The notes: a model not told the origin generated them from the sequence alone. A stretch of DNA of 64,000 bases from an uncultured Gammaproteobacteria bacterium (GCA_964447765.1 CAYUTO010000001.1:121125-185124); one strand, 5' to 3'; counted from the first letter of the stretch, positions 7,647-36,981 are shown. Numbers and translations are program-made.

Positions 7647-8153
7647 ATGCAACTTCCCTACCGAAAACCAGGCAAATACGCCCACACCCCCATGGACCCT
7701 TTTGTTACCCAAGAAAAACTAGATGAGCTCACTCGCAAACTCGAGCGATTGTATGCAGATCGGCCACAGCTAGCAAAAGAAGTAGGACGCCTAGCAGAGC
7801 TCGGAGACTTTTCTGAAAATGTAGAATATCAACTAGCAAAAGGAAAACTACGATCAGTCAATCAGCGAATCCTTATTTTGGAAAACCAACTCAAACATTC
7901 AGAAGTTATCTCTTCCACCTCAAAAGGCACTATGATCGAACTAGGAGACACCGTCACTGTACAGGCCAATGGATCAGAAAAAACATATCAGATATTAGGG
8001 TCAAGCGAGACCAATCCACACAAAGGAATCATTTCACACAATTCCCCTATGGGAGAAGCATTAGTCGGAAAAAAAGTGGGAGACACCGTCACTATCGAAA
8101 TCGGAAAGAAAACAATCGACTATGTAATAATAAAAAAAGAGCGCCCGAGTTAG
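7647..8153 (+). CDS. greA: Transcription elongation factor GreA
   Basis: N-terminal coiled-coil (LDELTRKLERL...GDFSENVEYQ) plus a C-terminal FKBP-like domain. The true start may be the ATG at 7692. Confidence 0.75.
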   Translation: MQLPYRKPGKYAHTPMDPFVTQEKLDELTRKLERLYADRPQLAKEVGRLAELGDFSENVEYQLAKGKLRSVNQRILILENQLKHSEVISSTSKGTMIELGDTVTVQANGSEKTYQILGSSETNPHKGIISHNSPMGEALVGKKVGDTVTIEIGKKTIDYVIIKKERPS

Positions 8154-19428: not shown

Positions 19429-20890
19429 AATTATTTTTGATATTACTAGCTACGAGTTGCGACGAGATAAGACACATTGGCATACCAATACCAGGATGCG
19501 TATACTGACCCGTATAATATAAATTAGCAACCTTTTTACTCTGATGGCGAGGCCGAAAGACTGCGGTTTGCATGAGAGTATGACTTAGGCCTAAAGCCGT
19601 ACCTTTATAGGCATTAAATAACTCTTTAAAATCACGATGAGAAATAATTTTTTGTACTACCGGATTATGCAGGTCTTCCCCCAACAAGCCTCCTAAATGA
19701 GTAAGTATCTTTTCCGCATATCGCGCTCGCAGATCATCTGAATCTTCTAAGCCCGCAGCTACGGGAACTAACACAAACAAAGCTTCGCCTCCCGGTGGCA
19801 CGATCGTCGAATCAGTTTTTGAAGCACAGGAGACGTAATACGAAGGATGCTCTGGCCACGACGGATCTTCAAAAATAGTATCAAAATGCTTCATCCAGTC
19901 ATGATCAAAAAATAAACTATGATGTTCAAGCCCCTTGATTTTACGATCATACCCTAAACACAGGATAAAAGCAGAGGGTGCTACGGTACGCTTCTCCCAA
20001 TATGACTCGCTATATGTTTGAAATTTCTTATCCAACAAAGCAGTTTCGGTGTGATGATAGTCAGAATTAGCAATAACAATATCTGCCTCTACCAAAGTTC
20101 CATTAACGATCACTCCACGCGCGCGACCATCGACTACTTCTATACGCTCAACTGGACTATTATACGTCATACGTGTGCCATATGACTCAGCCAACGTTAC
20201 CAATGCCTGCACGACGCGATTAATACCACCTTCTGGATACCACACACCCAAATTAAAATCTATGTGTGACATAAGCGAATAAATCGCGGGCGTATTTTTG
20301 GGAGCTCCTCCTAAAAATACCATACTATATTCCAAAATCTTTCGCAGCTTATCATTTTTAAAATATCTTTTGGTATATTTGTCCAATGTTTCAAACACAT
20401 GAAGTTTTCTGCCTTCAATAAGCATCTGGCGATTAAAAAAAGATAACAGCGATGTATAATCTTTATACAAAAAATCTTTCATTGATACATCATATTGATA
20501 CTTGGACTGAGCCAGATAACGAGATAGTTGAAGAGCTGCTCCCGGCTCAATGGATTCAAAAAGGTCCATGTTTTTTTGTAGATCTGCGGAAATATCAACA
20601 TAATCGTCTTTTCCATAAAAAATACGATAGGCCGGATCCAAACGTTTAAGGGTAAAAAAATCTTCCGGCTTTTTATCAAATTCCGCAAAAAACTTTTCAA
20701 ATACATCGGGCATTAAGTACCAGGAAGGACCGAGGTCAAATAAAAACCCACTCTCTTGATAGATACTTGCTCTACCCCCGGGCTGACTATTTTTCTCAAA
20801 AACGGTCACCGCAAAACCATCTTTGGCCAGCAGTGCCGCGGACGAAAGACCACCAAATCCAGCGCCAATAATAATTGCTTTTTTAGGCAT
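19418..20890 (-). CDS. crtI: Phytoene desaturase (CrtI family)
   Basis: N-terminal FAD fold IIGAGFGGLSSAALLAKDGFAVTVFEKNSQPGGRA. 490 aa. Confidence 0.75.
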   Translation of the reverse strand: MPKKAIIIGAGFGGLSSAALLAKDGFAVTVFEKNSQPGGRASIYQESGFLFDLGPSWYLMPDVFEKFFAEFDKKPEDFFTLKRLDPAYRIFYGKDDYVDISADLQKNMDLFESIEPGAALQLSRYLAQSKYQYDVSMKDFLYKDYTSLLSFFNRQMLIEGRKLHVFETLDKYTKRYFKNDKLRKILEYSMVFLGGAPKNTPAIYSLMSHIDFNLGVWYPEGGINRVVQALVTLAESYGTRMTYNSPVERIEVVDGRARGVIVNGTLVEADIVIANSDYHHTETALLDKKFQTYSESYWEKRTVAPSAFILCLGYDRKIKGLEHHSLFFDHDWMKHFDTIFEDPSWPEHPSYYVSCASKTDSTIVPPGGEALFVLVPVAAGLEDSDDLRARYAEKILTHLGGLLGEDLHNPVVQKIISHRDFKELFNAYKGTALGLSHTLMQTAVFRPRHQSKKVANLYYTGQYTHPGIGMPMCLISSQLVASNIKNNYGG

Positions 20891-21674
20891 ACATATATTC
20901 TCTTATAGCTTGACTAAATTGCCGTCTGCAGATAAATAACAATACTATGCCGAGCATAAACGGCACATATAATTCTAAAAATAACGCTAGGGATAACCAA
21001 AGAATACATGAAAAATATAAACTAATAGCAAGGCTTACTGGAGGCACCACACCATTGGCAATTTTTTTGACATACATATAAAAAATACATGACCCGACCA
21101 AACTGGAAACTATCCAACCAGCATAGTTTACCACCGGAACGCCATAATACATGCCTGGCTCTACCCACTTCCACAACCCCAATGTCACGGCTACCGGATC
21201 TACCAATAAATCTATCGATACCATAACTAGCGCAGTCAAAACTAATTTAAACAACCATCGTATACGAAATCCGCTCACAATCCCGACACTACCCAGCAAA
21301 ATAGGCACCCACACAAATGGCGTACTTAGCGGGACGGTACTACCAACCATAATACCTGTCTTCGCATTATATACAAAATGTCCATACGGAATACCAAACT
21401 GTATCGCCAAAGCTTCAATAACTATTGCAAGGATACCTAAAATAAACAGTATCAATAGACCTTTTGTCCAGCCTAACCACTTAACTGTTACAAAGGCTGT
21501 TGGGAGAAATAATACCAACGTAAATAACGTTGAAACTATGGCCATACTGTCATCAAACGGGACACGGGCAGTAAAAAAAGCTATCGTAACTAGTACGATA
21601 TGGACCAAGATAATGGTGAAGTGTTTGAGGGTAATATGATTACAAATTAACGTTTCAAGCCTAGGGTCGGGCAT
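20883..21674 (-). CDS. Carotenoid-biosynthesis membrane protein (CruF-like hydratase / PF04240-like)
   Basis: 7-8 TM helices. IEALAIQFGIPYGHFVYN resembles the E..G..G.P.G.Y.Y motif of carotenoid 1,2-hydratase-like proteins. First gene of the crt operon. Confidence 0.45.
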   Translation of the reverse strand: MPDPRLETLICNHITLKHFTIILVHIVLVTIAFFTARVPFDDSMAIVSTLFTLVLFLPTAFVTVKWLGWTKGLLILFILGILAIVIEALAIQFGIPYGHFVYNAKTGIMVGSTVPLSTPFVWVPILLGSVGIVSGFRIRWLFKLVLTALVMVSIDLLVDPVAVTLGLWKWVEPGMYYGVPVVNYAGWIVSSLVGSCIFYMYVKKIANGVVPPVSLAISLYFSCILWLSLALFLELYVPFMLGIVLLFICRRQFSQAIREYMYA

Positions 21675-21816: not shown

Positions 21817-21844
21817 AAAAAACCGCTTGGTTAGCGGTTTTTTG
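21817..21844. terminator. Bidirectional rho-independent terminator
   Basis: aaaaaaccgcttggttagcggtttttt. Confidence 0.6.
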
Positions 21845-21850
21845 ATATAT

Positions 21851-21895
21851 GCTCACACACTGGGACGAGTTTCAAACTGTTTTGACTAACTCTAC
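21851..21895. repeat. Conserved ~45-nt 3'-UTR motif, copy 1 (gctcacacACTGGGACGAGTTTCaAACTGTTTTgaCTAAcTCTAC)
   Basis: Near-identical to 29608..29652. Lies between the stop of gene 21960..25016 and its terminator. Confidence 0.6.
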
Positions 21896-21959: not shown

Positions 21960-24900
21960 CTATCTTTGCAATTCTTGTCGAGTCAGTGGTCCTACATACC
22001 CACTCGCTGGAGAAATTCCTTTCGCAATCTGAAACGCAATCACTGCTTGACGAGTCAATGCTCCAAAATAGGTAGTCTCATTTCCGAGAGATCCATATCC
22101 ACTCGCAACAATAGGAAATCCGTTTGTGTTGAGATAGACTTGTAGCCCTTTGACATCTTCCCCACTCATGCCAAATTCCAAGTCACGCTTCAATAACGTA
22201 GATGTCGGTGACACGCTTGTTGTACCAGAAATACAGCCGAGATATTTTCTTATGGAAACATCAAATAATCCTGTTGCAGCAAATGAGTGTTTGTTTTGAA
22301 ATACCTTCAACGCTTGCTCAGTCAATGACCCAAAATATGCAGTTTCTTGCCCAGGAGATCCGGGACCTACGATCGCTACAGGCGTACCTATATTATTCAA
22401 ATATTGTTGTAACGCCATAGCCGATGGACCATAATATCCTTTTTTCATATCTACCACAAACAGTGGAGACGGACAGTTTTTTGTTTCTTTTTCATTAAGA
22501 GGAACAACTGGTGACGGATTGGACATTTTTTCCTCTTCGTCACTTTGTGTTGCTCGCAACGTTAATTCCACGCGATTATTCCACAACGCAGTAAAAGTAA
22601 CTGATAGATCAGAGACACCATCACTATCGAGATCCATATCTGCCAACGCACCAACCTTCAATACAATTGTACGCGGAGTAGAAGCAACCTGGATTGTCAC
22701 TTCTTTTTGTTCCGACAAATCAAGGTCTGTAATGGTGAGACGATGTTCTCCCAATTTCCCACTTGAACTTTCAACGAGTGAAAATAGCGCAGTAGACTGA
22801 ATATATACAAGTAGATTAACACCTTCACCAGAAATTTCACCAATATGTTTTGTTGCGTACATATCGACAGATTGATCCGATGCACCACTTCCCTCACCAC
22901 CCGGCACAATAAATGTACCTCCTCCACGAGTTGTTGGCGCAGTAGTATCAACAACGACACTGGTCGTTGCCGCACTTGAAATGTTTCCGGTATTATCCAA
23001 TGCAAAAACACTATAATAATATCTACCATCGTCAAGTGATGTCTGAGTAATACCAGTCGTAGTGGTGGCGCTTGTGACCGCAGTCCCACTACTCACTGTT
23101 GCTGGGTATGACGAAGTACTTCTTCGCACGGTAATTGATACAAAGTCACTTGCCGTTGGATTGGTCCAGGAGAGCGTAATATTAGATTCTGCGACAGATC
23201 CTGTAAGTGAGGAAACAGCACTTGGTGCATTGGTATCTGATTGTTCCCATGCCAAAAAAGCATAGCCGGAATTGATTGCCGGATCCATTTCCCACGTACT
23301 TGACGTTCCTCCATCGTCGTATGGTGTGCCCACAAAATCCCATACGGTATCGAGACCACTGGTATCTGTGTCTGTAAACGTTGCCAACACTTTCATTTGT
23401 GCCGTTGTTTTTCCAGTACCTTTGCCGGTATCGCTCTGACCCGAAGTTGTACTATCGTAAAACGAACTATCAACTATTCCTTCTCTATATTCTTCAATCT
23501 CTTCATCATACACTTGGTTCCGACCAACCAATCCACCAACATTGGTTGAACCAGATATTGCACCGGTTGCATACGAATACCGAATCGTACCACCATTGTA
23601 ATTATCCCCCACTAGTCCTCCTACTCGATCGCCTCCGGTTACATCCATGGATGAATAACAGTTGATTACGGTCCCATTGTTGTTTCCGGTAATTCCTGCA
23701 AGATAATAACTTAATCCTACCCCCGTGATCGTACCCTGTGAACTAGCTCGAGTTATTGTTCCTATGTTACTCCCTGCAATACCTCCTATAGCGGCATCTC
23801 CCACCAGTTCTCCTGAAAATGACACATTGCTCATCATACCATTGCTGTGTCCGGCAATTCCTCCGACAATAAAATCTCCGGTAAAATCTGCCTCTGTCAC
23901 GCGCACATTGCTTATTGAGCCACTATCGTCAACATATCCAAAAAGGGAAACATGCTCTTCAGCAGGTCTATCGATATAGAGCCCGGATATCGTATATCCA
24001 TTCCCGTCGAGACTACCGGTAAATGTGTTAGCATTATCACCGATAGGATCAAATCCTGCTCCACCATTCCATCCGGTCGTACCAGACGCATCAATATTAT
24101 TTGAAATTGTATAGTTATCAGTTCTATCTACTGCGATCAATTGCAATTCTGCCAACGTAGTAATAGCTGACCGATGCTCCATTTGCAAATGCGGATACCC
24201 TGCCATAATCCAATCGCCAATTGTGCCATCCCCCGCAACCGTAAAATCCCAGTCCGAGAATGTACTTTGCGTCATCATTTGTGCCGTTGTTTTTGAATTA
24301 CTAAACGACTCTGCACTTGCTGTACTTCGTGTGGCGTCAAAATATGCACCAGTGACGTTGGGCGTGACTCCGCCATCAACACTTCCAATGATTCCATTTG
24401 TATCTGACCCTGAAATGATGCCCGATGCATACACATTTTCAATCGTGCCGGTAGAAAAACGACCAATGATTCCACCCAGATACCCCCCACCTACCAAGTT
24501 AACATTTGAATAGGAGCTCGTAACAATAGCTGTGGCTTCTGGCGTATACCCTGCAAGCCCTCCACAATAGGCGCCCGGCGTACAATCAAGCGACCCGCTT
24601 GCGTAGACGTGCGTAAGCGTTCCTTCAAGATAAGAGGCAAACGCTCCGGAATATGTCGATGCATCATAATCAATATCAACCAGACCAAGGTTTTTTACTA
24701 CACCACCCGCAGCAATACGTAAAAATAAACCCGCATAGGTTGTACTTACATGGATATTGCTCACCTCATATCCCTGTCCATCAAGTGTCCCTGTGAACGG
24801 CGAACCATAACTCCCAATCTGGGTAAAAGTCGGTACTCCCGAACAATCAATATCATTGATAAGCACATAATCTTCGGTCAAATCATCAGCAATATCTTCT

Positions 24901-25016
24901 AGCCCACTACACGTACTGATATTGGTAAGCGCAAACGCCGTACGTGGCACGAAGAACGCAATTGCCATAACAACAACTGCAAGGTACACATATACACGAG
25001 GAAAAATCATACACAA
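21960..25016 (-). CDS. Large secreted surface protein with GLUG-like repeats and two C-terminal peptidoglycan-binding domains
   Basis: Signal peptide. Repeated F.GTLDGQGY.ISNL / GGLVG / GGIAG units. Two PG_binding_1-like segments at the C-terminus. Confidence 0.6.
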   Translation of the reverse strand: MCMIFPRVYVYLAVVVMAIAFFVPRTAFALTNISTCSGLEDIADDLTEDYVLINDIDCSGVPTFTQIGSYGSPFTGTLDGQGYEVSNIHVSTTYAGLFLRIAAGGVVKNLGLVDIDYDASTYSGAFASYLEGTLTHVYASGSLDCTPGAYCGGLAGYTPEATAIVTSSYSNVNLVGGGYLGGIIGRFSTGTIENVYASGIISGSDTNGIIGSVDGGVTPNVTGAYFDATRSTASAESFSNSKTTAQMMTQSTFSDWDFTVAGDGTIGDWIMAGYPHLQMEHRSAITTLAELQLIAVDRTDNYTISNNIDASGTTGWNGGAGFDPIGDNANTFTGSLDGNGYTISGLYIDRPAEEHVSLFGYVDDSGSISNVRVTEADFTGDFIVGGIAGHSNGMMSNVSFSGELVGDAAIGGIAGSNIGTITRASSQGTITGVGLSYYLAGITGNNNGTVINCYSSMDVTGGDRVGGLVGDNYNGGTIRYSYATGAISGSTNVGGLVGRNQVYDEEIEEYREGIVDSSFYDSTTSGQSDTGKGTGKTTAQMKVLATFTDTDTSGLDTVWDFVGTPYDDGGTSSTWEMDPAINSGYAFLAWEQSDTNAPSAVSSLTGSVAESNITLSWTNPTASDFVSITVRRSTSSYPATVSSGTAVTSATTTTGITQTSLDDGRYYYSVFALDNTGNISSAATTSVVVDTTAPTTRGGGTFIVPGGEGSGASDQSVDMYATKHIGEISGEGVNLLVYIQSTALFSLVESSSGKLGEHRLTITDLDLSEQKEVTIQVASTPRTIVLKVGALADMDLDSDGVSDLSVTFTALWNNRVELTLRATQSDEEEKMSNPSPVVPLNEKETKNCPSPLFVVDMKKGYYGPSAMALQQYLNNIGTPVAIVGPGSPGQETAYFGSLTEQALKVFQNKHSFAATGLFDVSIRKYLGCISGTTSVSPTSTLLKRDLEFGMSGEDVKGLQVYLNTNGFPIVASGYGSLGNETTYFGALTRQAVIAFQIAKGISPASGYVGPLTRQELQR

Positions 25017-25084
25017 ATTATAGTTATATATTGATCCCCATTATACCAAAGAAGTAGGTTTGTAACCAACTCAGTTATCTATTT

Positions 25085-25116
25085 AAAAAATATCGTTACA
25101 TCAAACGATATTTTTT
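25085..25116. terminator. Bidirectional rho-independent terminator
   Basis: aaaaaatatcgtt...aacgatatttttt. Confidence 0.55.
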
Positions 25117-25147
25117 CCTCATACACTTGGACAGCTTCCGAACCTGA

Positions 25148-25543
25148 CTATGAAATTAGTATAATCCACTCAGGAGTGCCTGGTAATTTCTTTCTATATC
25201 CTGCACGTATTGGTAATTCTAGATAATTAATCCACGAATCCATCCAACCCTTCTTGGTCTTGAGCAGAAAATGTCCTGCGGGAAACTGTGCTGAATATCC
25301 CACAAATACTATTGTTCCTGTTTTGAAATATTTCTTTCCATACCTTCTCATACTCAGCACCGTTGTATTGACCCCCAGTTTATCAAGCGCTTTTACAATA
25401 TCTCTATTATAGAAACCACCACTTTTTTCTTTTTGCTTTGCATTATCAAAATAACGCTTCATCGTTTTGTACGACAAACCCACACGTGACGCTGTACAGG
25501 CAATCGCGCAACCTAATAGTGCTTCTTGTGGAATTTTTTTCAT
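25148..25543 (-). CDS. Small C39-like (papain-fold) cysteine peptidase domain protein
   Basis: Q...LGCAIACTAS (Gln/Cys) and GHFLL (His) spacing resembles the peptidase C39 catalytic arrangement. Confidence 0.35.
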   Translation of the reverse strand: MKKIPQEALLGCAIACTASRVGLSYKTMKRYFDNAKQKEKSGGFYNRDIVKALDKLGVNTTVLSMRRYGKKYFKTGTIVFVGYSAQFPAGHFLLKTKKGWMDSWINYLELPIRAGYRKKLPGTPEWIILIS

Positions 25544-25873
25544 ATAGCACTATCATAGTTTTTATAATTTTAATGTCAAGAAAAAACAAGCTTTAATAGC
25601 TTGTTTTTTGCTCGCGAGGAGTTCCTTAGTTGGAACACTATAGAGCAAACTGCTAGAAAGTGGATTACCACCTTCAGAAGATATGATTAGGGAATTGCTG
25701 TGGCCTATTCTAGCTGAAATTCTTCGTGTTCACAATACCTCATAGAGACTGGAACACTGCAAATCCTAACACCCATTTTGTTCTAGTGGTCTTTTTTACG
25801 CTCAACTCTGCATAATTTGACACTATTTTTTATTACTGGTAAAATTTTACCAGTAATTTATTACCTACAAAAT

Positions 25874-28800
25874 ATGTCTACCATCGGCTCTCGTATTACC
25901 TCCATTAGAAAAGCGAAGAAAATCACGCAGGAAAAACTGGCAAAATCTGCTGGGGTTGATTATAACACGCTCAGAAAAGTTGAAACAGGAAAAACTAAAA
26001 ATCCTGGTTCAGAATTTATTGAAAAAATTTCTCTTGCCCTGAGTGTGACGACAGATCAGCTAATAGAGCAACCAAAGCCGGAGGTCAAAGGCGGTGACAT
26101 GCTCCCCTTTATGCAATTACCCCACGGTAATTTTGAGAAAATGATACTGACAATCCTTCAGTCTGATAATGGTAGGTATACAGATATAGAGCCGTTTGGA
26201 GGTAGGGGTGATAAAAATAGAGACATACTTGCAGTTGAAATTATCGGACAAAAACCCGCCGCCAGTAAGACTTTATTTCAAGCGAAGCGTCATGAAAAGA
26301 CAACATACACGACTCTTGAAGACGAATTGATTGGTATAAAGACTCACTTTTTTGATCAACCAAATCCTGCAACTCCAATAGAAAAAATTGTTTTTTGTTT
26401 GGCTGATACACCCTCCCCCACCATAAAAGATAAACTAAAACTCTTTGCTCGAGAAAATAATTTGCCCGAGCCAATCTTTTGGGATGCCCGAACAATCGAT
26501 GTCATGTGTAAAAGAAGCAATCAAATTATCAATGAGTTTTTTGGCGGTCATATTGTGGAGGCAATAGAAGGTGTATCACAAGTTATGACAGAAGTCTTAA
26601 ATATAAAAGAAATGGTCCAAAAAAATACTTCCTCTACCAAACCAGATTCTACACTAACATCAGTAAGTTCTAAAGGCGACGCTCAAATGCAAAAAGCTCG
26701 AAGGCTTATTGGTGAAAAAAAGTATTCTGAAGCAAAGGATATACTTTTGACCATTAAAGAAACAGTTGAAAATTCGAGCGACCATGAACGACTAAAAAAA
26801 CTCTACAACAATCTCGGCCTATGTCTCTCCAAAGAAAACAACTCAGAAAGCCTAAAACAGAGTCTAGATTATCTGTACATGGCTATCGATCTCAAGGTTG
26901 CAAAACAAAATCTTATCGAGGTGATAATAAATAAAGAGGTCAAGGATAAGTATGACGATGCGCTCAAATATGCGCAGGAGCTTTTAGCCGAAGAACCAGA
27001 TAATTTGGACTATGCAGCGTTATACATACATGCACTAAATGCGAAGGATAAAATGCCGGATGCTAAAAAATTTATCGAAACTGACAAAAAAATAAAAAAT
27101 CGTATACAAGAAAATGAAGCTCTTTCAGTAGCTGTTTCCTTAGTCTATTTCATACTCCAAGAGGTTGAAAAAGCTAGTCTTTATGTAGACAATGCTTTGG
27201 AAATTTTTCCTGAATCATGGAGATTGAATAGATTTAAGGGTACAGCATTAATGCTTGAAGCTGAAAAAGGAATGCTCTCAAGAGATATTGACATCATGCC
27301 CTTCTTGAAAACAAATTTAGTCGAGAAGGCAGTGGAACATTTCGAAAAATCCCTGGATCTTGCAATAAATGATGGAGCACCCGAGTTTATGCACAACCAA
27401 ATTCGGTTATGTATATACAGCGCCATGATTTCTTTACGTAGAGGTCAATCGAGTAAATTCAAAGATGCTTACTTAAAAACACTCGAAAAAAGCATCGATG
27501 ATGGCCAGCTCAGTGAAACGGAGTCAAAGGCTAAAGTTGTGGCAAAAATATCTCAAATGCTTGAATGCGAAAGAAATTTTGAGACTGCTTACACTATCTT
27601 CAAAGAAGAAATTGTAGAGAAATATAATGCAACTTACAAAACTATTCTGGATATGGCGCACAAATTTTTTCAGCACGGTGCACCGGAATATTCGATTAAA
27701 TTGCTCGAACCACTACATGATGAGGCGAAGGAGAACAACGATTTTGAGTACTGGGCAGTTTTGAGCACATGCCATGCCTTACTTAATGACAAAAACTCAG
27801 CTCTACGGACAATGAACGAAGCACAAAAGCATTTTTCTTCTTTGACAGATATTGAGTTAAAAAGAAGAATACTTTCACACTACAGCGCATTAACTGCTCG
27901 CTATCACGATAACAGCGAAGCTGAGCGCATGTTCAGAAGTATGACTGAATTGCAAAATATCACACCAGAGGAAACAATTGTTCAGCCAATAGAGGCTCTG
28001 ACTTCTGACGGTCACCTTACTCAGGAAATGAAAGACTTTTTTGAGAACAATAAGAAGGATTTTATAAAGAAAAAAGAAAAGTTTGTTAATACTCCAATTC
28101 CAGTATACTTCTTGGAGAGAATTTTCAGTAGAAATTTCCCTGAAGCCCTAGAAATTCCACGGAATAACTATGATTTTGAATTTGTAATACATTACAATGC
28201 CCTAGATAAGGAATTTTTACATAGGCAGGTTGAAATTCTTGAAAAGAATGACACATTTGTCATTGATTATAGTGCCCTGCTAAATTTTTCTCGCACTGGG
28301 CAATTGGGATTATTTAGTGCACTTGGCAAAAAGGTATTAGCCTCTGAATATCTATTATTCCAAGTACAACAAGATCTAATGGTTTCCGAAAATCACACAT
28401 TACGGAACGCATGGAATTTTCTCCGCGGAGGAAATGTACAACTTTTTCCCTACATTGAGATTGAGAAAGGCGCTTTGCCCAAACTGATTAAAGACTTTTT
28501 CAGCGAATGGATGCCTTGGTTTGCACAAGAAATAGTATACTGTTTAAAAAATAAGACCCCTCTTATAACCGACGATCTACGCATGCTCAGTTACTTGAAC
28601 TCAGAAGAAGTTGGACTAGCTTCCATAAATAGCTTTATTTTTTTTCAAACAGGACTCATAACCGGCGCTCTTGATAAAAAACAGTATAGCCTTGTATTAG
28701 GTGATCTTGCAGACATGTTCTATCATTTTATTGCATTCAATGGAGAAGATTTGTTACATATTGTCGCAGACGATACTAACAAAATTAGAAATGGCAGTAC

Positions 28801-29209
28801 CCAAGATTGGATGAGTTTTAAAGAGCATGGTGAAAACTTCAAGGTCTCTAGAAGGGCTTACCATTTATTGAATCAAGTTCACTTACCTGGATCAGAGGTA
28901 ACAAGCTTTTTAGCAGTGTCCTTAGATTTTCTTGAGCGCCTGATTAAGCTCAGCTTTACTGAAGATGAAAAAATGGACTGGGTTCTATTTATGACAAATT
29001 TTTATGGAGGTTTTCTTTCTGAAGAAAATTTTAATACCCAACGAGAGCAGTTCACTGTTCACTTAGAGTTCGTTATTAGAGCGTGGGTTCTGATCTTTCA
29101 ATCTTTACCCAAGAATAGACCTGACATCTTAAAAAAGGCAGGTAAAATCAAGTACGAACATCTACGTTTAGCCATTGAAAATTCTTTAAGAAAAGGAATG
29201 GAACTATAA
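25874..29209 (+). CDS. Multidomain protein: XRE-type HTH, Mrr-like PD-(D/E)xK nuclease domain, TPR-like repeats and a ~450-aa unknown C-terminal domain
   Basis: HTH: ITQEKLAKSAGVDYNTLRKVETGK. Mrr_cat-like: FGGRGDKNRDILAVE...FQAKRH (D-E-K). The track start at 25817 is a TTG; the ATG at 25874 is preferred. Confidence 0.6.
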   Translation: MSTIGSRITSIRKAKKITQEKLAKSAGVDYNTLRKVETGKTKNPGSEFIEKISLALSVTTDQLIEQPKPEVKGGDMLPFMQLPHGNFEKMILTILQSDNGRYTDIEPFGGRGDKNRDILAVEIIGQKPAASKTLFQAKRHEKTTYTTLEDELIGIKTHFFDQPNPATPIEKIVFCLADTPSPTIKDKLKLFARENNLPEPIFWDARTIDVMCKRSNQIINEFFGGHIVEAIEGVSQVMTEVLNIKEMVQKNTSSTKPDSTLTSVSSKGDAQMQKARRLIGEKKYSEAKDILLTIKETVENSSDHERLKKLYNNLGLCLSKENNSESLKQSLDYLYMAIDLKVAKQNLIEVIINKEVKDKYDDALKYAQELLAEEPDNLDYAALYIHALNAKDKMPDAKKFIETDKKIKNRIQENEALSVAVSLVYFILQEVEKASLYVDNALEIFPESWRLNRFKGTALMLEAEKGMLSRDIDIMPFLKTNLVEKAVEHFEKSLDLAINDGAPEFMHNQIRLCIYSAMISLRRGQSSKFKDAYLKTLEKSIDDGQLSETESKAKVVAKISQMLECERNFETAYTIFKEEIVEKYNATYKTILDMAHKFFQHGAPEYSIKLLEPLHDEAKENNDFEYWAVLSTCHALLNDKNSALRTMNEAQKHFSSLTDIELKRRILSHYSALTARYHDNSEAERMFRSMTELQNITPEETIVQPIEALTSDGHLTQEMKDFFENNKKDFIKKKEKFVNTPIPVYFLERIFSRNFPEALEIPRNNYDFEFVIHYNALDKEFLHRQVEILEKNDTFVIDYSALLNFSRTGQLGLFSALGKKVLASEYLLFQVQQDLMVSENHTLRNAWNFLRGGNVQLFPYIEIEKGALPKLIKDFFSEWMPWFAQEIVYCLKNKTPLITDDLRMLSYLNSEEVGLASINSFIFFQTGLITGALDKKQYSLVLGDLADMFYHFIAFNGEDLLHIVADDTNKIRNGSTQDWMSFKEHGENFKVSRRAYHLLNQVHLPGSEVTSFLAVSLDFLERLIKLSFTEDEKMDWVLFMTNFYGGFLSEENFNTQREQFTVHLEFVIRAWVLIFQSLPKNRPDILKKAGKIKYEHLRLAIENSLRKGMEL

Positions 29210-29262
29210 TTCACTAATTTGATTTTTTAACTGATAAATTGTATAGTGTGTGAACAATTAAT

Positions 29263-29553
29263 ATGATCACAAAAAAGCAAAAACTCGAATGGGTAATTAT
29301 AGTGTTATTAACTTTTATCTGTATCGGATGTCTATTCCTTGTTAATAATAGTAAAGGAATGATACAAATCCCTGTTTTTAAAATCATCTACGAAAGCGCG
29401 CTGATTGCTACGCAATTTGTGTATGGATTTTGTAAAATGTTTGCAATACTTATGTGGTATACAATTACTCACAGCTGGATTACCATACTAATAACTTGTG
29501 CATTAATCGCGCTGTTTATCACTAATATTTTTTACCGTCGCACCAAAGATTAA
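29263..29553 (+). CDS. Small membrane protein, hypothetical
   Basis: 96-aa ORF with three hydrophobic helices. Confidence 0.3.
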   Translation: MITKKQKLEWVIIVLLTFICIGCLFLVNNSKGMIQIPVFKIIYESALIATQFVYGFCKMFAILMWYTITHSWITILITCALIALFITNIFYRRTKD

Positions 29554-29572
29554 TGAGGTAGTTTGAATAATA

Positions 29573-29605
29573 AAATAATACGACCTATAGGTCGTATTAT
29601 TTTAT
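29573..29605. terminator. Bidirectional rho-independent terminator
   Basis: aaaataatacgacctataggtcgtattatttt perfect palindrome. Confidence 0.6.
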
Positions 29606-29607
29606 TA

Positions 29608-29652
29608 GCTCCCATACTGGGACGAGTTTCGAACTGTTTTAGCTAATTCTAC
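29608..29652. repeat. Conserved ~45-nt 3'-UTR motif, copy 2
   Basis: 37/41 core identity to copy 1. Lies between the stop of gene 29706..30296 and a terminator hairpin. Confidence 0.6.
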
Positions 29653-29705
29653 ACTACATGTGTTTATCTAACAAGATATTCTTGGGATAAAAAATTTGAA
29701 TTTAA

Positions 29706-30296
29706 CTATAGATATTTTTGTAATTCTACTACAAGTTTTTCCCACTTTCTAAAGTATTCCTCGAGAGTCATTTCTTTTATACCATGCATTTGGTAAAGAA
29801 CATTAGTATCATCTTGATTACTATCAACATGAAATGTGTCAGGTTTTTCAATTCCTCCCAATTCAATATAGGTAAATTGTTTCTTTTCATCTACCTTTTC
29901 AGCTACTCTTTCACCAGCTCGAGGACAAAGATCATCTAAAATAAGTCTTATCTGTTTTGGTAAAAAAATATCAGAGCGTGTGTTAATATGATTGAAAAGC
30001 CCCCAGACACTTTGATCAAAAATGACTTTCTCATGTCTAATCATTGACAACTGTTCTGTATAAAAGTTTTCTCTATTTGCTATTATGTCGTTAATGTAAA
30101 TTTGATGCCATGATTTGCCTTTAGAATGAATTAAAAATCTTATTGTTTGAGTATATTTAAGTAAATCCTTTGCAAAGTTATACCTTTCTTTTCCACGTGT
30201 TTCTTTTTTCCATGAAAACAAAGCAAATCCAGCAATGATAACCATTACAAGTTGAAGTACTATATCAGTTATTTTTAAAATAATATCAGTTTCCAT
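29706..30296 (-). CDS. Small N-terminally membrane-anchored protein; putative partner of the PHP-ABC ATPase
   Basis: Directly downstream of 30378..33167 on the same strand. N-terminal TM helix. Confidence 0.4.
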   Translation of the reverse strand: METDIILKITDIVLQLVMVIIAGFALFSWKKETRGKERYNFAKDLLKYTQTIRFLIHSKGKSWHQIYINDIIANRENFYTEQLSMIRHEKVIFDQSVWGLFNHINTRSDIFLPKQIRLILDDLCPRAGERVAEKVDEKKQFTYIELGGIEKPDTFHVDSNQDDTNVLYQMHGIKEMTLEEYFRKWEKLVVELQKYL

Positions 30297-30377: not shown

Positions 30378-33167
30378 TTAAAAATTATATTTTTTCTTTC
30401 TTTGCTCAAAAGCAGTTTTTCCACCCTCAAGAATATCACAAACATGTTCTTGAATCCCTCTTTGCTCCAAGACATAATCAGAAGATTCATTCAAAAAAGT
30501 ATTTTCCAATGCCCCTTGTGCATATTCAAATTTATAGGTTTTATTCTTTGATTTATCGCCACTTTGATTTGCTACAATAACACATTCAGAATCTGCTCCA
30601 ACGACTAAATTTGGGTTATGAGTTGCAATAATTATTTGCCTATCTTTCTTTTTTGTTTTTATAAATTTTACAAGATCGTTATATATTGAACGATTATCTA
30701 AATCATCTTCTGGTTGGTCGAGTAAAATAGGACATCTGCTATTATCAAGTTCAATCAAAAGTTTGAGTAGGACAAAAGATTTTTTTCCTGGTGACATTTC
30801 CGAAATTTCATCTCCATTTTGTTTGATTATGTAGTCAAAGCTAAACCATAATTGAGTGAGTTTTGTAATAGCCTCCTTCTTAGAATAAGAATTTTTCAAA
30901 TTTATTTTTTCATTCAAAATAGCTTGTAAAATTTTCTTTAGATCAGCTTTAAAATTTGTTGTATTTAAAAACTTATAATCCTGTAAAACAACTTCTTCAA
31001 ATTTACTCAGCTTCCTTTGATCAAAAATATCATTTATACAGTGTTCCTGAAAAGATTTGACCTCAAACAGTATATCTATCCCAAATTCTAAATCTTGATC
31101 ATGCGTAATACTTCTTTGTTTCAATATTTCAGTTTTAGCATTAAAAAAATTATCGAAAAACTTAGAGTGGTTTTCAACAATACTTTTAATTAGATTCTCA
31201 TAAGCAGTTTTTAATGTTTCAAGATTCTTTTCTTGATCAATGATCTGCTTGAGTTTCTTTTCCTCTTCTTCGAGTTTTTTTATTTTCTCATCAAGAGATC
31301 TTGATTTTTGAGCTTTCTCTAAGAGAGGATTAAAGATTTTATGTAATTCTTCTAACGTATTTTCATGATCCGTTTTCTGTTTTTCTATTTTTTTGTTTTC
31401 CATTTCAATTGTTTCATGCCATTTTGCTTCCGCCTCTTCTAATGTTGTATTTAGACTATTTTGAAGATTCTTTTTAATACCAACCTCAAGAGAATCTAAA
31501 TATTCTTGGGTCGAAGAAAAAACACCAAAGTTTTTTTGAGATTTTAGAGCAGTGAGAGAATTTAAATCTTTCCCAACCTTTTCTTGGATTACTTTTAGAT
31601 TGGTAATTTTTTCTAAAGTATCATTATAATCTTTTATTTCATCATCGCTCATCCCTGCTTTTTTCTTGAGTTCCGAAACTTCTTTTTTCAGTTTTTCAAT
31701 TTCAGATTCGATTCCCTTTTTATCTCCAATCTCTTTAATACTTTCACTTTGATTTTTTATATCATTTTCTTTATAAAAAAGGTCTTCGATATTTTGTGTT
31801 ATGGTTTTTTCTACTTCTCTATTTTGATTTTGCAACTGAGTAAAAACATTCTTTACATCCTCCTCTTGTTCTAAGACATTTTTGATAATATCATCAATTG
31901 AAGTTTTCCCTTCTTTTTTATCAACGAGTCTATTAAGATATGATTGTGGAATATAAATAATTTTTTTATTTACCCCTGTATCTTCATCTTTTTTATTTAT
32001 TTGCTCGTCTCTCCAAACAACATGAAAATTTGCAACTTCATTTGGATATGGATCAATATTTACCTCACTAAGTCTTTTTGTTACCTCTTTAGGGTCAATC
32101 GTTTGTGCAATATTTCTTAATAAAATAGACTTTCCTGTAGATTTTCCTCCAATTATCGCTGTTAAATTTTGATTTATAAAAATCTCATTCGGAGTAAATG
32201 AATCATCAACAAATTTTACTATATCAATTGTTTCATACACATTTTTTTCTTCTGGTTTTAATTCTTGTATTTTAACTCTATCCTCTGGTTCACAAACTAT
32301 TTGGGTCAATCCCTCAAATGTTGTATCTGCTTTTATCCATGTAATTTCTGCGTAGTCTCCAATTTGCCCGTCTTTCCTTACTTCTTCAAACGATTTACCT
32401 AACTTATTATCTAATGTCTCAAATGAGTGAGAATCAGAACCAAAAACCACAGGTTTAGGAGCCAAGTTATAATCATTTCTCTTTCCTTCTTTATTAAGAT
32501 AAAAATCTACATTTTTTGAATTGCCAAAAAATACTTTACATTTTTTATCTAATTCTTTAGCATACTCAGATCCTCTCCCGTCATTTGATCCATTTGGTCT
32601 TAAGGAGCCGTATCCATTCGAAACACCAACAATTAAATATTCATTACTAATAAAATCTTTTTTTAATTTATTCTCCAATTCATCAATTTTAATCATTGCT
32701 TTATCGTATCCAATTTCATTCAAATCGGTCTCGATACAATACTTGTTAGTTAAATTTTCATCGTCAGTGGAGATGAGTTCTAATCTTGTAAAAAAATTAT
32801 TGATTTTATCTAAAGTAGACTGTGCATTGGAAAAAATTATATGAAATTGAATATGTTCCTCTTGGCTATTTTTTGATTCTGTTCTAAACTCAATATTTGG
32901 AAAAAAAACTTTTTTTGAATCTGGATACTTCTTTTTAAATTTTTCAACAAAAACAAAAAAATTTTGAATAGAAAAATAATCTGTTATTCCCACAACGGAA
33001 ACGTCAGAATTTTCTATTTTCTCACAAAAAATATCCCAGATATCCTGCTCACCAGTAGCGAGATATTGGTTATTTAATTTTGTTTCAGGTGGGTGGACAT
33101 GTAAATCCCACTTTCTCCATTCTGAGCCTCTTAAATAAGAGGCATTCGTTTTATTTGTTTCAGACAT
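30378..33167 (-). CDS. PHP-domain phosphoesterase fused to SMC/RecF-like ABC ATPase with long coiled coil (candidate defense protein)
   Basis: N-terminal WRKWDLHVHP and GSDSH PHP motifs. Walker A IIGGKSTGKS. ~300-aa Lys/Glu coiled coil. Signature-like EMSPGKKS. Walker B ILLDQPEDDLD. H-loop IIATHNP. Confidence 0.65.
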   Translation of the reverse strand: MSETNKTNASYLRGSEWRKWDLHVHPPETKLNNQYLATGEQDIWDIFCEKIENSDVSVVGITDYFSIQNFFVFVEKFKKKYPDSKKVFFPNIEFRTESKNSQEEHIQFHIIFSNAQSTLDKINNFFTRLELISTDDENLTNKYCIETDLNEIGYDKAMIKIDELENKLKKDFISNEYLIVGVSNGYGSLRPNGSNDGRGSEYAKELDKKCKVFFGNSKNVDFYLNKEGKRNDYNLAPKPVVFGSDSHSFETLDNKLGKSFEEVRKDGQIGDYAEITWIKADTTFEGLTQIVCEPEDRVKIQELKPEEKNVYETIDIVKFVDDSFTPNEIFINQNLTAIIGGKSTGKSILLRNIAQTIDPKEVTKRLSEVNIDPYPNEVANFHVVWRDEQINKKDEDTGVNKKIIYIPQSYLNRLVDKKEGKTSIDDIIKNVLEQEEDVKNVFTQLQNQNREVEKTITQNIEDLFYKENDIKNQSESIKEIGDKKGIESEIEKLKKEVSELKKKAGMSDDEIKDYNDTLEKITNLKVIQEKVGKDLNSLTALKSQKNFGVFSSTQEYLDSLEVGIKKNLQNSLNTTLEEAEAKWHETIEMENKKIEKQKTDHENTLEELHKIFNPLLEKAQKSRSLDEKIKKLEEEEKKLKQIIDQEKNLETLKTAYENLIKSIVENHSKFFDNFFNAKTEILKQRSITHDQDLEFGIDILFEVKSFQEHCINDIFDQRKLSKFEEVVLQDYKFLNTTNFKADLKKILQAILNEKINLKNSYSKKEAITKLTQLWFSFDYIIKQNGDEISEMSPGKKSFVLLKLLIELDNSRCPILLDQPEDDLDNRSIYNDLVKFIKTKKKDRQIIIATHNPNLVVGADSECVIVANQSGDKSKNKTYKFEYAQGALENTFLNESSDYVLEQRGIQEHVCDILEGGKTAFEQRKKKYNF

Positions 33168-33176
33168 AGTATTCTA

Positions 33177-34667
33177 TTAACAAGAGTGCTTTACCAAAAA
33201 CTCCCAAATTCGAACCATCGCCATCGTATCAAGTTTACAATACTCAAGGAGGTCTTCTTTGATGGTTTGTTTTTCTTCTTTCGTAGCCTTGTCTCCAATC
33301 ATGTATTCCCATCGTTCACTGGCTTGATCACCTTTTTGGATATTCAAGCTCTTATACGTCAAATCAGGCACCAATACAGGCAATATTTTTTTGATACTGG
33401 CACTTCCCACGAACTTTGCGTCTACATAGTATTGATTCGAGAATATCTCCATGAGGTCAAAGATATTGTCTACCAAACTCATAAGAAAATCAGCATGTTC
33501 AGGATGAAGCTCTATAAGTTTTTCAATACGTTGTTTCTCGTAATTTTTGTACCACACGATGAGTGTTCCATTCGGGTCGAGATCCTCACGCATTCTGTCG
33601 ACGAGTGCTTTAGTCATATCACGACTAGACTCGGTAATCAAGAACTCTTTATGCTCTGTTGTGCCGTCTTCCTGAACGATATGGAGTGAGTATTGAAACG
33701 GAATCTGTTCGTATGCACCAAACCCATTTGCAAGGGGGATAACGCTCGTATAGCCCTCAAAATCAAAGAATTGGAGGGGGTATTGAAGCCCACCAAGTAA
33801 CTCTCGTATCTTGTCATGGTCTATAGATGTTTTTCCTGTAATGTACGCCTCGTATTGAGCTTTTTTTGCACCTTTCAGGGATTCAGGATTGTCTATGTCT
33901 TCCAAAGCGTAGATACCCCGATCAATCCAATCTTCCAATAATTTTTTGCTTCCACCGATACGGTTTATATCGTGTACAGAATACTCGGGTACTTGTGGGT
34001 TTGAGTGAGCAAAGGTAGTACATTGATTGCTTCGCCCTTGATAGATACAGAGACAGCCCTTTTCTTCGGGCATAGTGAGATACTGCTTCATGTCTTCCAT
34101 TTGTTTTCTCACCTCATCGTCAAGAGTGGTTACTTCTCCTGAAACATCTTCGGTCACAAATAATTCGTAATAATTGATTGCGCCGTTTCGTCTATACTCT
34201 CTATTGAGATGAATAACACCCGTTTTCACAATCTTGATACCACTTTTTTCAATAACAATCTTCTGAAAAGCAAGATCCTTGATATAGTGCATTGGTTCTT
34301 TTCGTTTTATTTCATTCGCCGCCTTTACCTCATAGAGTTCATAGCCACCAAGCTCGTTATTTTTTACCAATACATCGGCTCGGATAAAGAATACATCTTC
34401 TTGAAAGGTGGCCTGAAATAGTATCTGTGTACCAACTTCAATATATTGCTTTGTGTCATTTACGGCGTCCGCACCCTGACTATCTACGAAAACGCCACCG
34501 TTAAATAGGTGACGTGCTTCGGTATCTGCAAGGTTTCCTTCTTCGATAATCTTACGCTCAAATTCCGACAACTCGACACCTTCAAAAAGCTCGGGCTTGT
34601 GTTTTTTTAGCCAAAGATTTTTTCTACAAAAGGTATATTCGAGATAGTCGGTTTTGGTTAAGATCAT
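33177..34667 (-). CDS. DUF2779-like domain protein (predicted nuclease-related)
   Basis: N-terminal ILTKTDYLEYTFCRKNLWLKKHKPELF matches the LSKS.F..G.QC.K.LWL..H.PEL pattern of DUF2779 proteins. Confidence 0.5.
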   Translation of the reverse strand: MILTKTDYLEYTFCRKNLWLKKHKPELFEGVELSEFERKIIEEGNLADTEARHLFNGGVFVDSQGADAVNDTKQYIEVGTQILFQATFQEDVFFIRADVLVKNNELGGYELYEVKAANEIKRKEPMHYIKDLAFQKIVIEKSGIKIVKTGVIHLNREYRRNGAINYYELFVTEDVSGEVTTLDDEVRKQMEDMKQYLTMPEEKGCLCIYQGRSNQCTTFAHSNPQVPEYSVHDINRIGGSKKLLEDWIDRGIYALEDIDNPESLKGAKKAQYEAYITGKTSIDHDKIRELLGGLQYPLQFFDFEGYTSVIPLANGFGAYEQIPFQYSLHIVQEDGTTEHKEFLITESSRDMTKALVDRMREDLDPNGTLIVWYKNYEKQRIEKLIELHPEHADFLMSLVDNIFDLMEIFSNQYYVDAKFVGSASIKKILPVLVPDLTYKSLNIQKGDQASERWEYMIGDKATKEEKQTIKEDLLEYCKLDTMAMVRIWEFLVKHSC

Positions 34668-36979
34668 ACAATAATCAAACTTTGCCAGCCTTTCATTGCG
34701 TTTGTATAAGAGTATTCTTTGTTTGAGTTAATCTTCCAGCCATTTTCATCTTTGACGACAATTCCACCTACAAAGCCCTTCTTATTCTTTAGCCATTCTT
34801 GTAATGCTTCGGCTTTGTATTTTGTGTCATTTGATTCTGCTGTAAAACCAGCTTTGGTATCAACGATCCAAATCTTGTTTTTGGTTTTGATTATCCAGTC
34901 GGGATAAAATAGTTTTTCTTTGTTCTCATCAGGATTGTAGTATGAGATAGAAAAAAATTCACTACCAGAATCTCCATTTTTATACCACCACTCAATAGCA
35001 TTTTCTTTTTCTTCTAAAAATTTGATAAATCCTTTTTCATTATCGACAACTTCTTTGGAAATATAAAATGGTTCCAAAGCGGATTTCTTTACTTTCATCT
35101 CTTCGTAGTTATCTGTAAAGAAGAGAGACGCTCTAGGCACTTCAATAATTTCCGTTCTTTTTGAGCGAACGGATTTTTTGTTTACCTCTTGATCACGAAT
35201 AGGACGATATGAGAATAGTGCTTCGCCGATGATTGGTCTCAAAACACCACTTTCTCTCAACAGATCATTGAGAATAACTTTGTATGCGTGAGTTCGGTCG
35301 TCCCCAAGTATTGGAAGAAGCCACACATTAAGAGCTGTTTTGAGTTTTCCCCATGAACGTTCAGGGGCAAACTTTTTATCTTCATCTGTTTGTTTACTGA
35401 CAATGTTAAAACAAACCAAATTATAGAGTCTTTCAATATCATGTTGAGACATGTCTTGATCGTGACTATCACCCTCGGCGAGCAATTCTTTGGTAAAATT
35501 GTCATAATCATCAATCTCCACACCAACGATAATGCCGTTTGTCACTTGAGGTTTTAGTTCAAGACCTTTTGCGGACAGTTTCTTTTTTGCTTCGCTATCA
35601 TTATCTTTTAAAGAGAATGTCTTGTTTGCTATCTTTTTGAAAGTGGTTTGAAATGAATCACCAAGGTCATTATAGTCTGTACGGCTCATGAAGATGGATT
35701 CAATCTGAATTGGTTCAATACCTTCTTTGCGATAACTACCGTAAATAGCTGGTTTATTTTCTGATTTGTTCTTATCGTATTCACTAATAACCTCGTTTCT
35801 TTTGTAGTTTGTATAGAGATACCCAAGATTCAATTCAGGCTTACCGAAATGAGTGCCGTGAGGCATACGAAGAATACGACCAACCGTTTGAATAGCAAAG
35901 GTAGGATTCTTAATTTCACGGAACATCACAAGCACGCCTGCACGTGGACAATCCCACCCAGTAGCAACAGCTTGCTTGAACAAAAGAAATGAGATAGATG
36001 AATTATTTCTTTCTACATCTTCGAGGTTAATTTTATCTTCCGAAAGCCAAACGGCAATATCATTTTCTGAAACACCTTTTTTCTTGAGATAGTTTATGAC
36101 AATTTCTTGTTTGTTGATATTACTCGTTTCACTCGTTGCCTTGTCATCATTGGGGAGCTGTATCAACACAAGAGGATTTATCTCAATACCAAGTGCCTGA
36201 TAGTATGAGAGTAGTTCTTTTCTTTTTTGATAGGCAAGTTCAAGAAGAATTTCATCTTGATCCATTCCTTTGAATTGCTTTTGATTCAAGTCTTCTTCTG
36301 TTTGAAATATAATTTTTTCTTTAATCAAACCTTCTTTGACCACATCTTCACGTCTGACACGAACAAAACCAGCTATTTTATCTTCGAGATCACTTACCGT
36401 AGGCTCAAATTTAGGAGTAGCAGACGCACGGATAATTATCTTTGGCTTGATAAGACCATCAATAAGTTCTAGGGCTTTTTCCGTATCAGCACCGAGGTGT
36501 TCTTCGTCGATAATAACAACAATTTTTCTATTTTCTTCATGAGTCGATTCTATCATCCCATCAAAAGAAATATCCTGTTCGTTGTCTTTACGAATTTTGA
36601 GCACTTCTTTTGATTGTCCTTTGAGTTTTTCCCAGTTTATAAAAAACACGCTATTACGAGTCATGATTTTACGATTCAAATCATTGATATCCAAAAGCTC
36701 TAACTCCGAAGCACCCCCGTAGTATTGAAAGAGTTTGTTTTTACTTTGTTCAACAAGAGTGGGACCTTTTGACATCCATAAAAAAGCCACATCATTACCT
36801 ATAAAACGAGGGTCGGCAATAATATCTCGCAAAAATTGAGCAAGCATGACAGTTTTCCCTGATCCTGTCGGAGATTTGAATACTAAAGGAAGTTGATTAT
36901 TAGATGATTTCCAAAGGTCAAGAAATTGATCCTTTAGTTTTGCAATAGCAATTTCTTGAAAAGGTTTTAGTGGAAACAT
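34664..36979 (-). CDS. Type III restriction enzyme Res subunit (SF2 helicase plus nuclease)
   Basis: Walker A SPTGSGKT, DEEH box, helicase motif VI QTVGRILR. Translationally coupled to mod. Confidence 0.7.
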   Translation of the reverse strand: MFPLKPFQEIAIAKLKDQFLDLWKSSNNQLPLVFKSPTGSGKTVMLAQFLRDIIADPRFIGNDVAFLWMSKGPTLVEQSKNKLFQYYGGASELELLDINDLNRKIMTRNSVFFINWEKLKGQSKEVLKIRKDNEQDISFDGMIESTHEENRKIVVIIDEEHLGADTEKALELIDGLIKPKIIIRASATPKFEPTVSDLEDKIAGFVRVRREDVVKEGLIKEKIIFQTEEDLNQKQFKGMDQDEILLELAYQKRKELLSYYQALGIEINPLVLIQLPNDDKATSETSNINKQEIVINYLKKKGVSENDIAVWLSEDKINLEDVERNNSSISFLLFKQAVATGWDCPRAGVLVMFREIKNPTFAIQTVGRILRMPHGTHFGKPELNLGYLYTNYKRNEVISEYDKNKSENKPAIYGSYRKEGIEPIQIESIFMSRTDYNDLGDSFQTTFKKIANKTFSLKDNDSEAKKKLSAKGLELKPQVTNGIIVGVEIDDYDNFTKELLAEGDSHDQDMSQHDIERLYNLVCFNIVSKQTDEDKKFAPERSWGKLKTALNVWLLPILGDDRTHAYKVILNDLLRESGVLRPIIGEALFSYRPIRDQEVNKKSVRSKRTEIIEVPRASLFFTDNYEEMKVKKSALEPFYISKEVVDNEKGFIKFLEEKENAIEWWYKNGDSGSEFFSISYYNPDENKEKLFYPDWIIKTKNKIWIVDTKAGFTAESNDTKYKAEALQEWLKNKKGFVGGIVVKDENGWKINSNKEYSYTNAMKGWQSLIIV

Positions 36980-36981
36980 AA

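Follow-up and report, generated by a model that had tools for sequence, protein, structure and literature searches.

What kind of system is encoded by a single gene that joins a DNA-binding domain, two nucleases and a long repeat array in one polypeptide? Such a gene lies at positions 25874..29209 (plus strand, stop codon included) of a 64,000-nt stretch of DNA, hereafter the window, deposited as an uncultured Gammaproteobacteria bacterium (GCA_964447765.1, CAYUTO010000001.1:121125-185124). An earlier note, made from the sequence without database searches, had described a 1,090-aa fusion of a helix-turn-helix (HTH), an Mrr-like nuclease and tetratricopeptide repeats (TPR). The fusion stands; the length is 1,111 aa, and a PIN domain, the second nuclease, had been overlooked. 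The window protein belongs to a known family of putative anti-phage proteins, TPR-GreA/B-C-PIN (TGP), of which it is a rare and divergent representative. We assign a probability of about 0.68 to the reading that it is a standalone, self-regulated defence protein of that family's restriction-endonuclease (REase) effector class, working broadly as proposed below.

The plus strand carries one long open reading frame (ORF) here, from a first ATG at 25874 to a stop codon ending at 29209, and a protein identical to its translation is on record (P0001). The N-termini of homologs align at this ATG, all of them reading MS(T/x)IG. A longer reading from a TTG at 25817 is unlikely, since the homologs share this N-terminus and since the strongest promoter candidate of the region lies at 25817-25845. 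Scans against Pfam, PADLOC and NCBIfam, together with a full-length AlphaFold model (predicted local distance difference test, pLDDT, 81), give the domain order: an XRE-type HTH, an Mrr-type DNase, about ten TPR repeats, a linker of 95 aa, a PIN nuclease and, last, a helical tail. When 5.8 billion protein clusters were searched by word index, 14 full-length homologs emerged (one identical record included) at 32-53% identity, all of ~1,100 aa and the same architecture; a profile of the C-terminal 387 residues, run against 1.84 billion representative proteins, found 90 relatives at E <= 1e-3, 59 of them at E <= 1e-30.

The C-terminus had been described as a ~450-aa region with no recognisable motif and no P-loop. 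It is ~415 aa long (residues 697-1111), and of that description the lack of a P-loop holds: the window protein has no Walker A motif, no NTPase family came up in the Pfam, PADLOC or NCBIfam scans, and a P-loop or STAND NTPase was rejected on the missing Walker A motif. The region is not motif-less, containing a PIN domain with conserved acidic residues and a helical extension. The structure prediction that the earlier note had recommended, run with AlphaFold on residues 725-1111 (pLDDT 82.6) and with Foldseek against the PDB, returned PIN domains as the top matches (PAE0151, AF0591, PAE2754, VapC, SMG6 and Fcf1/Utp24), with probability 1.0 and target TM-scores of 0.55-0.66. This PIN-fold nuclease domain occupies 28244..28753 (plus strand; residues 791-960, or 793 to ~960 in the model), and its acidic positions are widely retained: D798 in 82/82 aligned relatives, D901 in 89/90, E839 in 79/90, D934 in 77/90 and D959 in 69/90. 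PF20698, the Pfam family entitled "PIN domain associated with the TPR-GreAB-C-PIN system", matches 3 of the 14 full-length homologs and 5 of 12 homolog C-terminal fragments. Its gathering score of 27.8 bits is exceeded by P0043 (30.2), P0054 (35.7) and P0076 (38.5), three relatives retrieved with the profile of the window protein's own C-terminus. Behind the PIN domain, the helical extension (28754..29206, plus strand; residues 961-1111) is confidently modelled as helical and is conserved along with the PIN domain in relatives, as part of the same constant module.

The other nuclease sits near the N-terminus. An Mrr-type PD-(D/E)xK domain spans 26099..26539 (plus strand; residues 76-222), modelled as an alpha-beta-beta-beta-alpha-beta core within an alpha/beta fold at residues 84-222. 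The earlier note had picked out such a core from GDKNRDILAVE...FQAKRH, and rightly: the quoted motif is present (GDKxRD...FQxKR, 26210-26287, plus strand); D113, K114, R116, D117, Q136, K138 and R139 are invariant in the 14 full-length homologs; and Pfam Mrr_cat (PF04471) matches 11 of the 14 when they are scanned singly, with a best E of 2.1e-7. Relative P0043 passes the Mrr_cat cut-off, PADLOC adds a weak match to the LmuA (Cap4-like) nuclease at residues 82-186, and a PDB sequence search with the Mrr domain found no close relative. Conservation of the D/E/K residues in homologs had been singled out as a check. D113, D117 and K138 are each conserved in 39/39 relatives and Q136 in 36/39, in a family that is rare and patchy rather than core; the condition that the earlier note had named as refuting, unconserved residues in a ubiquitous core protein, thus does not hold. 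As the catalytic residues are conserved in both domains, both nuclease active sites look functional, judging from sequence.

A conserved Mrr_cat motif could also belong to a modification-dependent, type IV Mrr-like restriction enzyme, in which the DNase attacks foreign modified DNA, the HTH is a controller of the C-protein kind, and the TPR and PIN parts are accessory. The HTH does match PADLOC 'Control_protein' models of restriction-modification (R-M) systems, and R-M genes adjoin the locus. We nevertheless think this explanation improbable: Mrr-type enzymes pair their catalytic domain with a reader of modified DNA (Mrr_N, SRA), none of which is present here, and relatives keep the TPR-linker-PIN part while losing or replacing Mrr, which means that the conserved core of the family is not the DNase.

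That core became apparent from the architectures of the relatives. Local segment hidden Markov models show a constant TPR-linker-PIN-tail module behind a variable N-terminus, which may be XRE-HTH plus Mrr, Mrr alone, a MerR-type HTH plus Mrr (P0043), a metallophosphatase (P0047, which also carries extra BNR and PNP_UDP domains after the tail) or nothing recognisable. A homolog search seeded with P0076 gave 7 proteins, from a candidate list saturated by TPR words. In the window protein the module opens with the multiple TPR-like helical repeats that had been noticed from the sequence: Pfam TPR_19 and TPR_2 match, AlphaFold models an uninterrupted helical solenoid of ~20 helices at residues 266-696 (26669..27961, plus strand), mostly at pLDDT 80-94, and its Foldseek neighbours are the TPR superhelices Ski3, Ctr9, SPINDLY, OGT and IFIT5. 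The 95-aa linker domain (27962..28243, plus strand; residues 697-790) comes between TPR and PIN, in the place that GreA/B-C is reported to take in canonical family members; it is retained throughout the wider family and modelled as mostly helical, with pLDDT below 50 at 756-773.

A constant module behind exchangeable effectors is what Kaur, Iyer, Burroughs and Aravind described (eLife 2021, section 7; PMC8195603) as a conflict system with a fast-evolving constant part, made of TPR, GreA/B-C and a formerly undetected PIN domain, and ~13 variable N-terminal effectors, including REase and HNH DNases, TIR, SIR2, PNPase and peptidases, in mostly standalone genes. Their source table lists ~450 proteins of the REase+TPR+GreAB-C+PIN type (for example ABA73572.1 of P. 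fluorescens Pf0-1, 1,113 aa), ~180 TPR+PIN entries without GreAB-C and a single HTH+REase+PIN entry (MBI5207389.1, 808 aa, Candidatus Firestonebacteria), and it includes members from Candidatus Magasanikbacteria and Moranbacteria. The architecture was later named TGP in a study showing that Agp of E. coli ECOR25, together with a partner, Bab, protects against phage T5, and that mutations in the GreA/B-C domain or the PIN site of Agp abolish this defence (bioRxiv 10.1101/2024.11.07.622273, 2024). The window protein has the family-type PIN domain, a TPR array N-terminal to it, a variable N-terminal effector and a standalone gene in a conflict context. We place it in the TGP family because its layout, size, PIN type, standalone status and the N-terminal variability among its relatives match the REase-effector class.

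One domain of the canonical architecture did not turn up. A GreA/B-C domain between TPR and PIN was sought in several ways. Pfam PF01272 (GreA_GreB) is absent among the matches listed for the window protein, the 14 homologs (25 of 31 matched families) and 8 relatives; a 58-sequence profile of the linker, run against the PDB, found no GreA or Gfh1 chain; and hhalign of the linker against a GreA alignment of 121 sequences (the window's own GreA, 7647-8153, plus 120 homologs) gave a probability of 0.1%, with equally negative results for more canonical-looking relatives. Between residues 266 and 790, AlphaFold predicts no beta-rich domain and not one strand that reaches 3 residues. The tests draw on shallow alignments, and at 756-773 the model is of poor quality. 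By eye, NPxPxYFL...GR...E...DFxFxI in the linker resembles SPIARGLIGK...EFEVI of GreA; the linker was rejected as a GreA/B-C domain when PDB profile, hhalign and predicted secondary structure all proved unsupportive. Since no GreA/B-C domain was detected, the RNA-polymerase docking proposed for canonical TGP proteins is not simply transferable to the window protein.

At the other end of the protein, the XRE/Cro-C1-type HTH (25883..26071, plus strand; residues 4-66, or 4-63 in the model) is secure, as had been claimed from the sequence: Pfam HTH_3 (PF01381) matches residues 10-63 with 37.9 bits against a curated cut-off of 23, SinR and the 434 Cro/repressor are matched in a PDB sequence search, and the predicted recognition helix, VDYNTLRK-E, is invariant in the 14 full-length homologs. 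Where this domain might bind is suggested by the DNA just upstream of the gene. A sigma-70-type promoter (25817..25845, plus strand) consists of TTGACA, a 17-nt spacer and a TG-extended TAAAAT, with agreement at 11 of 12 positions; no other site within 25000-29800 looks as much like a promoter, and the same -35/-10 layout recurs upstream of homologs. Overlapping its -10 box is a predicted operator (25832..25865, unstranded), in which a perfect 26-bp palindrome with fully complementary arms (25832-25857) contains a first site, O1, GGTAAAATTTTACC (25838-25851), which is followed directly by a second, O2, AGTAATTTATTACC (25852-25865). The only exact occurrence of GGTAANNNNTTACC in the whole window is O1, and O2 is an adjoining copy with one mismatch.

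The predicted operator is not peculiar to the window. Across 11 loci of 5-22 kb, GGTAWNNNNWTACC occurs once per locus, always 36-45 nt upstream of the ATG of the homolog, and in a promoter alignment of 10 loci the operator block is the most conserved part. The block (T/C)GGTAA-N4-TTACC(A/G)GTAA-N4-TTACC stands upstream of homologs in nine independent lineages, with the -10 box inside the first palindrome. In the subclade of P0010 and P0011 (loci L015 and L016) it reads GGTAT-N4-ATACC, a change mirrored in both half-sites, as expected of an operator bound by a dimer. The simplest reading of these patterns is that the fused HTH acts as a negative autoregulator at its own promoter. The earlier note had called the protein DNA-sensing, which we find unsupported; the HTH looks like an autoregulator on a predicted own-promoter operator and not like a sensor of invaders.

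An N-terminal XRE HTH followed by a TPR array is also the layout of the RNPP regulators, and with a specific predicted operator at hand the protein might be taken for a peptide-sensing transcription factor of the PlcR, NprR or AimR type that controls its neighbours and whose nuclease-like domains are inert. A transcription factor with a degenerate nuclease fold had indeed been the alternative considered at the outset; the conservation of both nuclease motifs disfavours it, and the catalytic residues of both are nearly invariant. The operator, moreover, lies solely at the gene's own promoter, once per locus; the neighbouring genes are not conserved, and there is no conserved small neighbour gene among them. 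HTH and TPR are not joined directly, being separated by the 165-aa nuclease domain, a PIN domain follows the repeats, and no RNPP structures appear among the sequence or fold matches. We regard an RNPP-like regulator as very improbable.

The same autoregulatory arrangement is reminiscent of toxin-antitoxin loci, and one could see in the protein a fused addiction module, with the XRE HTH as an antitoxin-type autorepressor and the PIN domain as a VapC-like toxin; its main role would be to keep the island or mobile element in which it resides stable, rather than phage sensing. The HTH matches the DNA-binding domains of the antitoxins HipB, MqsA, PezA and HigA, the PIN domain comes nearest in fold to those of the VapC type, the operator over the promoter resembles toxin-antitoxin autoregulation, and integrases and recombinases adjoin homologs. 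Against this, everything is one polypeptide with no separate labile antitoxin, ~430 aa of TPR and a second nuclease would be left without a role, relatives swap their N-terminal effector domains as immune proteins do, and one member of the family gives protection against a phage. An addiction module is in our view an unlikely explanation.

In the defence reading that we prefer, a dimer of the HTH would bind GGTAA-N4-TTACC and repress transcription of the gene, keeping a potentially toxic double nuclease scarce. The TPR solenoid would hold the nucleases inactive and serve as sensor or scaffold for an infection cue, which would be a phage protein or an altered host complex. Once triggered, the Mrr-type domain would cut DNA and the PIN domain RNA, and phage replication would be stopped, probably at the cost of the infected cell.

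Several observations weigh against this reading. Taken alone, the window protein has no Mrr_cat match at E <= 1 and no PF20698 match at E <= 10; as it falls below both profiles, the Mrr and PIN assignments are made from its homologs, from conserved motifs and from predicted structure. For the PIN match Foldseek gives weak E-values (0.02-0.5) despite the probability of 1.0. One of the domains that define TGP, GreA/B-C, was not detected between TPR and PIN, which is not proof of its absence. One part of the conserved block upstream, TGGTAAAAT, would be kept in any case for its role as an extended -10 element. IMG/VR viral contigs yielded no relatives, and the trigger, the substrates and the abortive-infection outcome are ones that we infer for the window protein. 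The host, too, appears to be a bacterium of the candidate phyla radiation (CPR, or Patescibacteria) close to Candidatus Magasanikbacteria, as suggested by the window's GreA gene (7647-8153, plus strand), whose product shares 93% identity with a protein named from Candidatus Magasanikbacteria; to our knowledge this uncultured lineage has no known phages.

A wider proposal concerns the whole clade, and here we are tentative and would lean against it if pressed. The clade may be a GreA/B-C-less branch of TGP without RNA-polymerase docking, which represses itself through the fused XRE HTH and in which infection, sensed by the TPR array, would release a DNase and an RNase, forming a compact immune module of CPR bacteria, including lineages that read UGA as glycine.

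The loci of the homologs share no gene neighbourhood. Neighbours differ in every locus and are often defence or mobility genes. Two homologs (L013 and L014) have a type I R-M operon just upstream and a SIR2_2 gene 12-14 nt downstream (L013 9338-10333, L014 9336-10331); in this subclade SIR2_2 may be a partner specific to the lineage, or it may form a separate system. Elsewhere a reverse transcriptase and a KAP NTPase (L015) or serine recombinases (L012 and L003) adjoin the homolog, one homolog lies in an integrase/AlpA/AAA_25 element (L016), and one is flanked by housekeeping genes (L004). The original suggestion of an abortive-infection or restriction-like single-protein system fits these surroundings (type I R-M, SIR2, reverse-transcriptase, KAP-NTPase and integrase or recombinase genes), and it fits a family of predicted conflict proteins one member of which protects against T5.

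Homologs also occur in metagenome-assembled genomes (MAGs) labelled Peribacteria. In one of them the homolog (L003, 8644-11917) is broken into an ORF of 794 aa and another of 326 aa that overlap, a sign of a frameshift, a pseudogene or an assembly error. Another record labelled Peribacteria carries a homolog (L005, 10001-13345) with TGA in frame at 28 codons and a single TAA, at the end; the most frequent counterpart of these TGA positions in standard-code homologs is glycine (11/28). Two further homologs, P0013 and P0014, show W at conserved-glycine columns. Lineages that read UGA as glycine (genetic code 25) thus have the family as well, and P0013 and P0014 were apparently translated under code 4.

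Around the gene in the window, the upstream side holds a 131-aa ORF, divergently oriented and directly upstream (25148-25543, minus strand, no family match), and beyond it a large, probably secreted protein of 1,018 aa with GLUG, Big_13 and PG_binding_1 domains (21960-25016, minus strand). Downstream come a hydrophobic ORF of 96 aa and an ORF of 196 aa, and at 29-33 kb the GC content is down to 0.28-0.31. The 131-aa, 96-aa and 196-aa neighbours have no match in Pfam or PADLOC. A conserved partner gene was considered and rejected, as these three and the PG_binding neighbour have no counterparts near homologs. The right-hand side bears out the earlier description of a nearby defence island: at 30378-38736 (minus strand) lie genes for a Ppl-like protein of 929 aa (PADLOC Ppl, 1.7e-16), for a DUF2779 protein whose Cas4/RecB-like match is weak, and for the Res and Mod proteins of a type III restriction system. 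On the other side, at 17552-21674 (minus strand), is a carotenoid/isoprenoid cluster (polyprenyl synthase, SQS_PSY, an amine-oxidase-type desaturase and Caroten_synth), with MurL and UbiA nearby, an unusual set for a CPR genome.

The gene had also been placed in a 7.7-kb block bracketed by a repeated 45-nt motif. The repeat is real and longer, two minus-strand copies of 59 nt (21837..21895 and 29594..29652) with 80% identity, 7,757 nt apart, whose 25-nt core is confined to these two positions in the window, where chance would give 0. They do not look like the ends of a mobile element, because each lies between a minus-strand stop codon (of the PG_binding gene on the left, of the 196-aa gene on the right) and a terminator hairpin, intrinsic and strong in the minus-strand reading at both copies, and because the block between them is compositionally mixed. 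A tRNA-derived att site was rejected as the origin, there being no tRNA and no Rfam family at that place, and the motif had no match in metagenome contigs. The repeat is possibly a shared 3' untranslated or terminator-proximal element, and we do not take it as a sign that the 7.7-kb block is a single mobile unit.

Should the tentative proposal for the clade prove true, the TGP mechanism could do without RNA-polymerase docking, and autoregulation fused in cis would be an alternative safety catch. TGP is a large predicted immune family with one experimentally studied member, and it is a hypothesis that GreA/B-C docks on RNA polymerase and PIN then cleaves the transcript. A variant that keeps the TPR-linker-PIN core and two intact nuclease sites without a detectable GreA/B-C domain therefore offers a test of what the core module needs, and its fused repressor and conserved predicted operator give a concrete model of how a toxic single-gene system may be restrained. 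The protein also adds a defence candidate for CPR bacteria, whose anti-phage repertoire is poorly known. The finding refines a known family and does not overturn current ideas.

Compared with the REase class of TGP, the window protein has the same layout of REase effector, long TPR array and PF20698-type PIN domain, the same length of ~1,100 aa, a standalone gene and a variable N-terminus. It differs in the XRE HTH that precedes the nuclease, in the predicted operator at its promoter and in a divergent C-terminal module (its profile reaches just 90 of 1.84 billion representative proteins). What sets it apart from canonical TGP is that GreA/B-C has apparently been lost and that an autorepressor, with a conserved predicted operator, is fused in cis. 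MBI5207389.1, compared by its published architecture string only, shares the HTH+REase N-terminus and the family PIN and likewise has no GreAB-C annotated; it is shorter, at 808 aa, and unlike the window protein has no TPR annotated. Agp, the only member with experimental anti-phage activity (against T5), shares the TGP architecture and a length of ~1,100 aa; it carries an N-terminal amyloid motif, signals to the separate membrane-targeting partner Bab and needs its GreA/B-C domain, whereas the window protein has a DNase effector of its own, no partner gene and no detectable GreA/B-C. Outside the family, Avs and other STAND sensors with Mrr- or Cap4-type effectors follow the same logic of an N-terminal PD-(D/E)xK effector and a C-terminal TPR sensor in one polypeptide, but they have the STAND NTPase and Walker A motif that the window protein lacks, and the window protein has a PIN domain and an HTH in addition. 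With C-protein R-M systems and operons of the CapH and BrxR type it shares an XRE-type HTH and a palindromic operator over the promoter of a toxic defence gene; there the regulator is a separate small gene, whereas here it is fused in cis to the effector.

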